Positions 16,292 to 58,161 of a stretch of 64,000 bases of DNA are shown here, piece after piece. Within the stretch, counting starts at the first letter, position 1. Each line of letters opens with the position of its first letter. The notes below the pieces were generated by a model, which was not told where the DNA came from, ran no database searches, and was given only the letters and a program-made list of their open reading frames with translations. Made by a program: the position numbers and the translations under genes. Origin of the DNA: Chrysomallon squamiferum (lineage: Eukaryota; Animalia; Mollusca); the NCBI GenBank assembly GCA_012295275.1, contig CM022676.1, positions 4,092,001-4,156,000 on the forward strand, in the 5' to 3' direction.

Positions 16292-19200
16292 ATGAGTTGT
16301 AAGATATTCTGTGTGTTCGTGTTGCTGGGATCTGTAATTTACGTACAAGGTATGTATTTTATATTCTCCATCCCCCAAAACAGACAGACGTCCCGTAAAG
16401 TATAGTATAGCATAAACAACACATAACACAGTGGAGCGTATTTGCCAATGACCTGCCGTTTATATTGAATAATACGTGTAATAAATTATAGACTGGTCTG
16501 ATATAACTAAATACCAAACACAGAAAAAAAGTATATAAAATTAGATTTATTTATACATTTATTTGTAGATTTATTAATTGCATTTGCCAGATAGGAAATA
16601 GGCTCTCATTGTTGCTTGTATGAATAGACTGGAGCATACCATTAAATCAGCGAGGGGTGTACAGGATACATGACCCAATAAAGAGTTTTGTCTATCAAAT
16701 GGCGTGTCTGCATTATGGGCTATCTGTCGGTCTTTTGTGAGGGAACCATTCATCTGTACCTGAGTGTATTTCATTTACAAACTGTGAAATCTAGATTGAG
16801 TCGAAGTTATGTTTCGTTGACTAATGTAAACAAATATATATATGCGTAATTGTGTGATTTGAATTTTTGAAACATATCTGTATTAAAACATGGGACAATA
16901 ACATAATATAATATAACATAACAGAGTGTAACGTAAGGTAAGGTAAACATAATGTAATAAACGTAAAAATTATGGAATAAAGTATGGTAATAATAATCGT
17001 CATCATAATAATAAAAATAAATAAATAAATAAATAAATAAATAAATAAATTATAAATAAAAAAAAATATTTAATTTTATTTGAATTTTTTTTATTATTAT
17101 TATTTTAAATTTAAGGTCAGTATCACAATTTAACATCAGACAGATATGCAGTTGCTGGATCATCTTTTACTTTTACCTGTCGAGGAGATCCCGCTCCTAT
17201 ATTTAGCTGGTTTGTGAATAACACAGAATACAGGATGCATGTAGCAGGAAGATACGGTCAGTGTTATTTTCATGGTGAACATCCAAGGGAATACAGTTTT
17301 AACTGTTCACATGAATTAAACACTCTGACAATAAAATCAGTGAAACTCAGTCAACATGGAACAGTGTGGAGATGTGGTGATTTTAATCCAGGCAGCAATG
17401 AAATAAAACTGGAAGTGAGAGGTAACATTAACTTATTTATTATTAATCTTTTTAAAACCGTACCTATTAGATGTCGTTAATAGTTTTATTACCTACTGTT
17501 ACAACTTTTTTTGTTTTGTTTTGTTTTCATTTTTGTTTTTCTTTAAATATATAGTACATAAGCTATGAGAATGCGAACATACACTATCAAGGACAACAAT
17601 AACAATTGTAATAACAATAACAACAACAATAATAACAATAATAATATAGAAGTCACTCTGCATATTGTATTCCGCAAAGAGGCTTTAATAGTACTAGTAA
17701 TTTTCTAAATAATAATAATAATAATAATAATGATGATGATGATGATGATGATGATGATGATGATGATGATGATGATGCTATTAATAACATTAATATTAAT
17801 AATGACTAATAATCATCGACATCAAGAACATAGTGGAAGTAGATTATAGTAGTAGAATTAGTGGTAGTGGTAGTAGTAGTAGCAGCAGCAGTAGTCCGCA
17901 GTAGTAGTAGTAGTAGTAGTAGTAGTAGTAGTAGTAGTAGTAGTAGGAATAGTAGTAAATTAATAACAAATTTGGATAAATGTGATAACGTTTTTTTTGT
18001 TTTAGGAGGTCCTAGTGAATCGCTTCATCTCACTTCCCTTCTGACCAAATCTGTTTTGTCTGTCGCGGAAGGAAGTGACGTCACGCTGATATGTTCTGCG
18101 AAATGCTTCCTGACATGTGACTATGAATGGCAGGTCAGAGGTCACGTGATAAGTAATAGCAGTGTTCTCTCGTTGGCTGATATTAATAGAACACAAAATG
18201 GTTTGTACACGTGCACGGCCACAAACCCAGATACGAAGGAAACATCCAACCAGACTGTGAAAATTAATATAGAGGATTTGAGAGGTTTTACAAGCTTTTA
18301 TAAATATATATATTTATTTTTATAAAGTAAAAAACACGAAAATTTCAATACAGTTGCTTCCATTTTTCTTCTTCTTTCATTTATTTTTCTTTAATTTCTT
18401 TATTTTGTCTTCTTCTTTCTACAATTAAATTTTTTCTTGATTTAAAAAATAAAGTGTTTTTTTTTCTTCTTTCATTCTTTGTCTTTCCTTCCTTCGTTCA
18501 TTCGTCCAAACAGTGGTGGTTCTTTTACTTTTGATTAGTCGTAGTAGAAGTTGTAGTAGAGGAAGCCGTGGTGGAAATAATTTGTAGTAGTAGTAATTTT
18601 ACTTTTTGTTTTTGTTATGGTAGTAATAGTATAGCAAAAGCAGAAGTTTGTGGTAATAGTAAAATGGTAAAGCACTAATTTGTGTTGGTAGTCGTACTAG
18701 TAATACTAGTTAAGCCGTATCATTAGTAAGAATAGTAGTAGTAGTAGTAGAACAGTAGTTTGTAGCAACAGCAGTCGTAGTAGTAACAGTAGTAGTAGTA
18801 GTAGTAGTAGTAGTAGTAGTAGTAGTAGAACAGTAGTAGTAGTAGTAGTAGTAGTAGTAGTAGTAGTAGTAGTAGTAGTAGTAACATAACAGCAATAGTA
18901 GTAGTGGCTATATTAATAGAGCTATATTACTGTTACGGTTCTTCCTTTAAATACTTCTTTCTTTTTTTTTTTAATTATTATTTTAATATCTGAAAATACA
19001 CAAACGCGCGCGGACAACAATATTTCTTACGACTTAAAAAATATAAAATAATTGCCCAATTCATTCTTACTTTATATAATTTTATTTTATTTTATTTTGT
19101 TTTATTTTTTTTATTTTTTTTTTAATTTCATTTTTTATTTTTTTTTTTTTTTTATATTTATATTTATATTCTTATTTTTATTATTGTATTTTATTTTAGA

Positions 19201-55400: not shown

Positions 55401-58161
55401 ATAAATAAAATAATAATAAAATAAAATAAAATAAATAAATACATCAATGATATTTGTTTGTTTCTATTATTATCAACATGATCCTCATTATAATAATAAT
55501 CATCAACATCATAGACATCTTCATCATCATTATTATTGTTAAACCTGCTGATACTGTTGTTATTGTTGTTGTTGTTGTTGTTATTATTATTCTTATTATT
55601 ATTGTTGTTGTTGTTGTTATTATTATTGTTATTATTGTTATTATTATTATTATAAATTAAATTTATATTATAATACCTCTAACTTTCAACACAATTGTGT
55701 TACTCGAATATTGATGATCCATATTTTCACATCGCCAAATATTTCCTTCTTGATTTCTGTTGACAGATGTTATAGTAACTAGAAACTTGTTACGGAAACA
55801 TTTGAAAGTGTAATTTCCACTAATACGTGACAAAACATCACAGTGTCCGGGACCAAAACTTAACACGTCATAGATGACGTCATTCTCAAACCACCTGACG
55901 CGATGTGAAGTTTGGAAAATCTGACATGTCAACGTAAATGAAAGACCGCTGACAGCGTAAGGAGCAGATCCCCGAAGATTCGGCCGTCCTGAAAGTAAAC
56001 TGTAAACACTGAACACACCCGGCCACGCCCACACCCTGAGACGCACAGACACAGAAACACACTCAGATAAATACATAGATAAAGCAATCTATAGCGTAAC
56101 AAAGTGAGTCTGACCTTAGCTGGATATTCTTAAATAAACGTTTATATCTGGGTCTCTGATATTATAAATATACACGTCTTACAAATATTGTTTTGTTTGT
56201 TTATTTTATCATTTTATTTTTACTGTGATTAGTTTGTTACTTACGATCAACAGTCAAATGAAGTGTTTTATTGGCAGTTTGTTTCGTATCTGGATTTTCA
56301 GCCACGCACACATAGAGACCTGATTGTGATATATGAACATTAGCCAGTGACAGAATGCTTGTGTTACTTATGACGTCATCTGCGACCTTCCATTGATAAT
56401 TACACGTGATGAAACACGTCGCCGAACAAAACACTGTGACGTCACTTCCTTCCATAGTAGTCACAACAGACGAAGTATTCAGTTTGAGAGATGTTCCAGG
56501 ACCGTCTGAAAAAAAAAAAAAAAAAATAAAAAAAAAAATAAAACGTTATCATCATCATCATCATTATCGGCAGCTTCATCATCTTTATCTTCATATTTTT
56601 GTTTGATTCTTACTGATGGTAGAAATTGTAGGTTACTCACATTATTAGTTATGGATGTTGTCGTCGAAGTGATGGTGATGATGTAGTGTTTGAGTTGTTG
56701 CTGTTGGTATTATAATTATTACTAATGTCACAACTATTGATTTTTTTATTTTTTTATTTACTTATATTTATTTATTTATTTATTTATTTATATTTATTTA
56801 TTTATTTTTTTTATTGATATATTTACAGTCCAGTTTTTTTCATCTAATAGATATATATTTAATAAGAATAATAAATAAATTAATTTTACCTCTCACTTCC
56901 AGTTTATTTCATTTGTTTTTTTAACATGTACACTAATATATTACAGTAATAATATTTTAAGTTAATAAATAATAATAATTTAAATTTTACCTCTCACTTC
57001 CAGTTTTATTTCATTGCTGTCTGGCCTGAAATCACCACATCTCCACACTGTTCCATGTTGACTGAGTTTCACTGATTTTATTGTCAGAGTGTTTAGTTCA
57101 TATGAACAGTTAAAAGTGTATTCTTCTGGATGTTCACTATAAAAATAACACTGACCGTATCTTCCTGCTACATGCATCATGTATTCTGTGTTATTCTCAA
57201 ACCAGGTAATTAGAGGAGCAGGATCTCCTCGACAGGTAAAAGTAAAAGATGATCCAGCAACTGCGTATTTGTCTGATGTTGTTAAATTGTAATACTGACC
57301 TTAAATTTAAAATAAAAAAAAAAAAAATCAAATAATATTAAATACATATTTTATAATTACATTCTTTTTAAGTTTTGTGTTATTTTTATTTATTTATTTA
57401 TTTATTTATTTATTTTATTTTATTTATTATTATTATTATTATTATTATTATTATTATTATTATTATTATTATTCTTTACGTTTTATTACTTTATGTTACA
57501 TTAACACGATAAGCCATGTTATGGATTCTCATATCCTAATGTTATGTTATGTTATGTTATTGTTTCATGATTTAATACAGATATGTTTCAAAATTTCAAA
57601 TCACACAATTATGCATATACATTTTACATTAGTCAACGAAACATAACTTCGACTGAGTATAGATTTCACAGTAAGTAAATGAAATGAACTCAGGTACAGA
57701 TAAATGGTTCCCTCTCAAAAGACAGACAGATAGCCTATAGTGCAGACACACCATTTGATAGACAAAACTCTTTATTGGGTCATGTATCCTGTACACCCCT
57801 GACTGCTTTAATGGTATGCTCCAGTCTGTTCATACAAACAACAGTGAGAGCCTAATTATAATCTGGTAAATGTAATTAATAAATCTATAAATAAATCTAT
57901 AAATAAATCTAATTTTATATAATTTTGTTCTGTGTTCTGTATTTAGTTGTATCGGACCAGTCTATAATTTATTACATGTATTATTCAAGGTAAACGGCAG
58001 GTCATTAGTAAATGCACTCAACCGTGTCTTCTGTTGTTTATGCTATACTATACTTTATGAGACGTCTGTCTTTTGGGAGGAATATAAAATACATACCTTG
58101 TACGTAAATTACACATCCCAGTAACACGAACACACAGAATAACTTAACTCTTACAACTCAT
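52425..58161 (-). pseudogene. Five-Ig-domain ITAM receptor B4 (V-C2-V-C2-Ig-TM), probably disabled
   Basis: Exons 58161-58097 (signal, 7-nt insertion gives TAA at codon 6), 57299-56991, 56505-56245, 55988-55677, 55348-55088, 54844-54566, 54179-54063 (TM), 53292-53262, 52820-52774 (VYYNV) and 52539-52425 (YSSLEERRNDVPYDVI, out of frame at a G5 run if the first acceptor is used). Confidence 0.75.

Follow-up and report, generated by a model that had tools for sequence, protein, structure and literature searches.

A gastropod ITAM-receptor gene family with clustered V-exon variation and likely exchange of V exons

How recognition is diversified in invertebrates, without rearranging antigen receptors, is an open question, and several described systems bear on it. 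In Xenopus CEACAM genes, conversion of the N exon is bounded by the exon and its splice sites and is followed by a build-up of nonsynonymous changes in the CC'C''FG region (PMC5112662, in part; sources so marked are cited for the passages that treat these features), and the CEA family shows concerted evolution (PMC7042247, in part). Hydractinia Alr genes are clustered, single-pass members of the immunoglobulin (Ig) superfamily with a variable N-terminal V domain and tails bearing ITAMs (immunoreceptor tyrosine-based activation motifs; PMC9546547 and PMC8282982, in part). Among molluscs, the oyster receptor CgIgR, which combines five Ig domains with an ITAM, recruits Syk and binds bacteria (PMC6994640, in part), the Biomphalaria PTC1 and PTC2 clusters hold highly polymorphic single-pass genes, some with Ig domains, that are tied to parasite resistance (PMC10875847, in part), and the VIgL proteins FREP, CREP and GREP (the subject of PMC7494358) are secreted and combine Ig with lectin or fibrinogen domains. 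Here we analyse a cluster of receptor-like genes in a 64,000-nucleotide stretch of the gastropod Chrysomallon squamiferum (assembly GCA_012295275.1, contig CM022676.1, positions 4,092,001 to 4,156,000 of the forward strand; hereafter the window, numbered from its first base). Four related V exons, B1 to B4, show real, clustered variation and have likely been exchanged between members of the family. They head the following genes (TM, transmembrane; aa, amino acids; pLDDT, predicted local distance difference test score):

16292-20843, +: gene B1, 314 aa, intact frame, all splice sites AG/GT, RNA contigs
16292-16349, 17116-17421, 18006-18284 and 19200-19317, +: B1 leader, V, C2 and TM exons
17116-17421, +: V exon B1, bounded by AG..GT
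20285-20331 and 20707-20843, +: B1 tail exons (YxN; YxxL-x8-YxxL)
31165-35792, +: gene B2, 315 aa, six exons as in B1; allele or recent duplicate of B1
31984-32292, +: V exon B2, bounded by AG..GT; predicted nine-strand V-type fold, pLDDT 89
45050-49600, -: gene B3, 313 aa, intact frame, AG/GT sites
49543-49600, 48554-48862, 47594-47872 and 46517-46628, -: B3 leader, V, C2 and TM exons
48554-48862, -: V exon B3, bounded by AG..GT
45658-45704 and 45050-45186, -: B3 tail exons (the latter YxxL-x8-YxxI)
52425-58161, -: five-Ig gene headed by V exon B4, layout V-C2-V-C2-Ig-TM-tail
56991-57299, 56245-56505 and 55677-55988, -: V, C2 and second V exons of the five-Ig gene
56991-57299, -: V exon B4, bounded by AG..GT
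55088-55348, 54566-54844 and 54063-54179, -: further C2, Ig and TM exons of the five-Ig gene, with three tail exons

B1, B2 and B3 encode, in this order, a signal peptide, a V domain, a C2 domain and a membrane helix, followed by a YxN exon and a final exon carrying YxxL-x8-YxxL/I, a tail motif that fits the ITAM consensus quoted in PMC9546547 (in part). The receptor role proposed in the initial annotation of this DNA fits these leader-V-C2-TM genes with their intact frames and ITAM-type tails. The family is spliced in RNA: contigs from run X8 span the leader, V, C2, TM and last exons of B1, and one of them joins V to C2 across the GT..AG intron. The initial annotation also treated B1 to B4 as like copies, which for B4 holds in the leader, intron 1 and V exon alone; its body reaches just 52-56% identity to B1-B3 in C2, and B1 and B2 may be alleles. 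The B4 leader carries a 7-base insertion with an early stop, and as assembled the ITAM-type motif is out of frame at a run of five G, a break that may be an assembly slip; from its sequence the five-Ig gene is apparently broken. Directly behind V exon B4 lies a duplicated 3' end of the V exon with its splice donor (56841-56913, -).

Compared with the systems above, the window genes resemble Alr in their clustering, single-pass layout, variable V domain and ITAM tail. The Alr-type comparison of the initial annotation thus holds as an analogy, but the features that define Alr are missing: in Alr proteins, domain 1 is without the canonical Cys pair, and I-set and Fn3-like domains precede the membrane (PMC9546547, in part), whereas the window domains keep an intact Cys-Trp-Cys pin and C2 leads straight to TM with no Fn3. 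With the Xenopus genes the window shares what appears to be exon-limited conversion, later change on the CC'C''FG side, opposite gene orientation and ITAM tails (PMC5112662, in part). The window genes resemble CEA in sequence only at the end of V and in the C2 part (expectation value (E) 3e-7). CEACAM N domains are not known to have the disulfide between strands B and F, whereas the window V domain has both cysteines and a second pair. In contrast to the secreted VIgL proteins, a TM exon is present and lectin, fibrinogen and Fn3 domains are absent from the window genes. CgIgR, likened here by description only, is described as one gene, and V-exon variation is absent from that description (PMC6994640, in part). 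By defining features of sequence, the window family is not Alr, CEACAM or FREP.

The sole close named relatives are proteins of Gigantopelta aegis, a peltospirid gastropod, annotated as 'CEACAM1/5-like' or uncharacterized (XP_041372833.1, XP_041379697.1, XP_041373955.1 and others), of which the six closest are 56-61% identical in V. Like the window genes, the G. aegis family has V-C2-TM and V-C2-V-C2-Ig-TM layouts, the second Cys pair, ITAM-type tails and the variable regions; its names come from automatic annotation only, and the window V exons form a clade of their own. Judged from sequence, the window genes are members of this 'CEACAM-like' family. Word-indexed protein searches returned 1, 2 (unrelated long Ig proteins) and 7 matches, none of them Biomphalaria proteins, and distant relatives escape such searches. 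An expanded 'CEACAM5' family is named in a figure legend of PMC7895826 (in part), and we infer that it is this receptor family; the main text of PMC7736800 does not carry the name. Our search of openly accessible abstracts and main texts found no analysis of V variation, conversion or tails in this family, which the supplements of PMC7895826 and PMC7736800 may list.

Clustered variation in the V exon

At the DNA level, B1 and B2 differ in 36 of 304 columns of the V exon (11.8%) and in 95 of 2418 non-low-complexity columns of introns 1-5 (3.9%; Fisher p 9e-8). The introns are thus about 96% identical, not fully so. Manual counts in the initial annotation proved accurate: the two V domains differ by 21 residues and a one-codon indel in a codon alignment (another gap placement gives 23 differences), C2 differs at two of 92 residues, and all 12 quoted variable segments, from three regions in four copies, lie where they were placed.

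Among B1-B4, 31 V residues vary, 23 of them among the 36 positions assigned to BC, C'-C''D and FG and eight among the 66 framework positions (p 1.5e-7, a value that is partly circular because the regions were drawn on the model strands with the finding in mind). Clustering is nevertheless also seen with a region-free adjacency test (p 0.014), while window scans gave p 0.03-0.11. With strictly defined loops on the predicted fold, 13 of 22 membrane-distal positions are variable vs 6 of 29 proximal ones. Over positions 14-102, the same regions vary in five N-terminal V domains of G. aegis (entropy 0.84 vs 0.17 elsewhere, p 5e-7), and the variability profile of these domains correlates with that of the window domains (Spearman 0.48). 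Summed contig depth on V exon B2 falls over the variable regions in four of four DNA runs (Spearman coefficients from -0.59 to -0.78 across 17 of the 19 exon bins, the last two being omitted as adjoining the intron). One RNA contig matches the B1 V exon with one mismatch and a 3-base gap, and another V contig shows 27 differences. We considered sequencing error as the source of the variation and rejected it, as frames are intact, the C2 and tail exons are near-identical and the RNA contig matches B1 V. The clustered variation of the V exon is therefore real. A B2-only Lys-to-Asn change at codon 77 (32214-32216) adds an N-glycosylation sequon to the EF loop; the remaining V-exon sequons sit in conserved framework.

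An AlphaFold2 model of the V domain, built on a six-row alignment, has a pLDDT of 89 and strands A, A', B, C, C', C'', D, E, F and G. Its closest folds are the V domains of antibodies, T-cell receptors, CRTAM, Necl-1 and CD8 (Z up to 10.9, root-mean-square deviation 3.0, 98 aligned). The pin of Cys in strand B, Trp in C and Cys in F is kept (C22, W32 and C87, invariant in all ten aligned rows), and a second invariant pair, C50 and C64, would connect C'' and D in the model. The D-x-G-x-Y-x-C motif is altered, with Gln or His instead of the EF salt-bridge Asp and Trp85 instead of the corner Tyr. None of the four V exons has a Pfam V-set match at E 0.1, while a generic Ig match is found. As modelled, this is an atypical V-type Ig domain, with its variable sites at BC, C'/C'' and FG, where the initial annotation had predicted them. 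The central region, named there as the C'C'' loop, includes that loop but also the C' strand, the C'' strand and the C''D loop.

Likely V-exon exchange and tests of selection

Distances between V exons are uncoupled from those of their flanks. V exons are 6.9-12.2% apart in all six pairs, whereas the leader and intron 1 differ by 2.8% in B1/B2 and by 14.5% in B1/B4 and are unalignable between B3 and all others. The B2 V exon is closer to B4 (7.2%) and B3 (9.8%) than to B1 (11.9%), although B1 is the nearest relative of B2 in every flank. Alignment of B3 with B4 around V is limited to 48890-48531, that is, the exon and about 25 bases per side; beyond this, only the short leader and a single weak match upstream align. 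Between B3 and B4, synonymous distance is 0.048 in V vs 0.51 in the next exon, C2, a contrast beyond what purifying selection on the protein can produce. The four window V domains form one clade against eight distinct G. aegis domains (support 100/100). B1 and B2 are themselves chimeric, with a dead B3-type leader followed by a B4-type head on a B3-type body:

14820-14868, +: dead leader exon upstream of B1, B3-type, splice donor lost; the same dead exon lies at 29736 in B2
15003-17447, +: cassette of upstream DNA, leader, intron 1 and V that forms a B4-type head on the B3-type B1 body; matches 59928-56965 at 80-83%

Our comparisons suggest that members of the family have likely traded V exons, which the initial annotation missed, and we infer gene conversion as the mechanism. 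Raised synonymous change in the V exon, together with the uncoupled distances, indicates that exchange explains much of the B1/B2 contrast. Separately, B3 and B1 (47050-48890 and 17085-18830) are 1-4.5% apart over C2 and the first half of intron 3 and 14-32% apart over much of introns 3-4; the near-identical part may be a second, longer conversion tract.

Sequence-based tests are suggestive of diversifying selection on the V loops, as the initial annotation had proposed. Site tests are marginal (p 0.03-0.09), whereas pairwise tests are non-significant: the ratio of nonsynonymous to synonymous rates (dN/dS) in V is 0.93 in the pair B1/B2, and the five remaining pairs have 0.94-2.26. One-ratio codon models give omega 0.98-1.05 for the V exon. 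On the best tree, p is 0.09 for M1a v M2a and 0.028 for M8a v M8, and roughly 47% of sites have omega 2.4; across all three trees M8a v M8 gives p 0.004-0.028, with an M8 class omega of 2.4-2.9. The loops hold 37 nonsynonymous and seven synonymous changes (ratio 1.7, p 0.13) and the framework eight and five (ratio 0.48), but loops exceed framework in synonymous change per site as well (0.27 vs 0.11). B3 and B4 differ in V by 24.5 nonsynonymous vs 3.5 synonymous changes, and intact B1 has 14 private base changes in V vs three in B4 with its broken leader (p 0.013). In sum, dN/dS is near 1, but V-exon divergence is three times that of the introns and the variable sites are clustered.

Family size, allelism and neighbouring genes

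At 80% likeness, the four DNA runs yield 355, 170, 168 and 303 contigs that match the 451 bases surrounding a single V exon, and one framework variant is carried by 18-35 separate contigs. Runs X10-X22, in which 5% or less of the sequence words occur, were left out. Summed depth on the V exon is about 4-15 times that on C2 and at least 20 times that on TM in three runs; bins over the leader and intron 1 show a similar rise. These counts point to a pool of tens of V exons, with the reservation, which also weighs against our overall reading, that summed contig depth is no copy number and does not capture divergent stalks such as that of B4. Contigs from X1-X3 on 19504-20856 differ at 26-29 places in the last exon and at 27 in intron 4, indicating at least one further short-form gene outside the window. 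Beyond B4, three tandem copies of an intact ITAM-type last exon (61353-61445, 62474-62566 and 63671-63763, -) are spaced by about 1.1 kb; their parent gene lies beyond the right end of the window.

The B1 and B2 blocks are homologous from 14476-27499 to 29394-43755 and are separated by a scaffold gap:

29194-29393: scaffold gap of 200 N, immediately followed by the B2 block

We consider B1 and B2 somewhat more probably alleles split by this gap than duplicates. Against alleles, 27500-29193 has no counterpart behind the gap. Among the 40 of 549 rows listed, X1 has the B2 letter alone at eight B1/B2 sites outside V, and a separate X1 contig equals B1 exactly where B2 differs twice, a pattern that indicates one mosaic type rather than two fixed copies. 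In X3, an FG-loop contig is identical to B2 and the B1 letter is absent at 17288; in X2, the B2 letter is absent at 32140 and some B1 letter is present at 17288 and 18014, in a comparison limited by a contig filter that hides some contigs. Depth on the last exon is about twice as high for the type shared by B1 and B2 as for the B3 type (95.8 v 43.1 in X1, 9.68 v 4.36 in X3), which fits alleles or duplicates. In either case, the V type differs between samples.

The window is AT-rich (30.8% GC) and rich in microsatellites, and four-exon genes lie among the receptors:

3214-6792, +: four-exon neighbour gene; last exon looks frameshifted
10402-14188, +: four-exon neighbour gene
21966-24620, -: four-exon neighbour gene
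36930-39495, -: four-exon neighbour gene
28986-29192, +: partial copy

They have a weak CABIT match in exon 2 (E 0.05-0.06), a proline-rich stretch and a SAM domain (E 3e-5). This CABIT-like/SAM layout, which we take to be that of a GAREM/Themis-like adaptor, adjoins receptors with YxN tails.

Alternative explanations and candidate function

The reading that we consider probable is that of a gastropod ITAM-receptor family whose V exons are exchanged by conversion, with selection likely diversifying BC, C'/C'' and FG regions that would bind microbial ligands. Several observations weigh against it. Private changes inside the V exon are not significantly patchy (runs test p 0.16), which lends no support to short-tract conversion, and in G. 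aegis the identity among V domains (69-81%) is little higher than that among C2 domains (56-91%). Four sequences make for weak selection tests, which recombination inflates, and the adjoining SAM-domain genes have dN 0.044 vs dS 0.047, indicating that the region is generally fast-evolving. Finally, the inhibitory partner of a paired-receptor system, as in paired CEACAMs, is not seen in the window, where no gene carries only an immunoreceptor tyrosine-based inhibitory motif (ITIM) and all four are ITAM-type-tailed.

The same exchange could have acted under relaxed constraint, tolerant loops receiving conversion from older copies without positive selection. The whole-exon omega of about 1, the raised synonymous change in loops, the non-significant loop excess and the SAM-domain neighbours at dN about equal to dS would all fit, and Ig loops are generally tolerant; but M8 is preferred on all three trees, nonsynonymous differences predominate in B3/B4, and the broken-leader copy B4 has changed least, so that we give this alternative a low probability. 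The model of the initial annotation taken alone, in which point mutations were fixed by diversifying selection after B1/B2 duplication without exchange, accounts for excess divergence confined to the V exon, for loop clustering and for a runs test without patch signal. We nonetheless regard it as improbable, because the B1/B2 synonymous distance in V is 0.137, unchanged codons alone differ at 5 of 56.5 sites (8.8%; p 0.07 vs introns), B2 V is nearer to B3 and B4 than to B1, and the likeness of B3 and B4 ends at the exon edges, with a synonymous contrast that strains the model. Alr-like self recognition, in which V binds the same allele on another cell and polymorphism marks self among immune cells or gametes, seems to us more improbable still. 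If B1 and B2 are alleles, 21 differences in an N-terminal V domain joined to an ITAM tail do match Alr1/Alr2 (PMC8282982 and PMC9546547, in part), but with many paralogous V exons exchanging sequence, allele-specific identity would be blurred, the Alr sequence hallmarks are absent, and the sole mollusc ITAM Ig receptor found in the literature binds bacteria (PMC6994640, in part). Snails, moreover, are solitary and are not known to fuse.

On the preferred reading of exchange with diversifying selection, the distal loops and the C'/C''/FG side would bind a microbial ligand. By analogy, the tail tyrosines would then be phosphorylated and recruit a Syk/Shark-type kinase and a Grb2-type adaptor, for which CgIgR is a precedent, and the receptor-bearing cell might engulf or restrain the microbe. 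Conversion, helped by the opposite orientation of B1/B2 and B3/B4, would spread and reshuffle V exons as selection likely pushes the loops to diverge; B1 and B2 are probably alleles whose V exons came from different members of the pool. An ITAM-type tail is kept, in at least one isoform, in four of seven matching G. aegis genes, and some G. aegis tails have ITIM-pattern matches beside the ITAM. One isoform, XP_041379699.1, skips the membrane exon and retains the ITAM tail. Our best reading, by analogy, is that the family would work like vertebrate CEACAM paired receptors without being a CEACAM member. We regard as unlikely a bolder version in which dozens of leader-V cassettes, many broken or bodiless like B4, would donate V exons by conversion to a few ITAM-bearing bodies, forming an inherited (perhaps also somatic) antibody-like repertoire that separates symbiotic from harmful bacteria, with the co-duplicated CABIT-like/SAM adaptor genes as signalling partners.

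Two cautions apply: the 'CEACAM-like' label on these proteins derives from the stalk, and near-identical neighbours across a scaffold gap may be alleles. If the preferred reading is true, a V domain with a canonical pin, CDR-like (complementarity-determining region) variation and an ITAM tail in a gastropod, with exchange as in vertebrate CEACAMs, would amount to a convergent solution, and these animals would have a recognition repertoire that is inherited. As its closest named relative is a vent snail that carries symbionts, recognition of symbionts or pathogens is a testable candidate role for the family.

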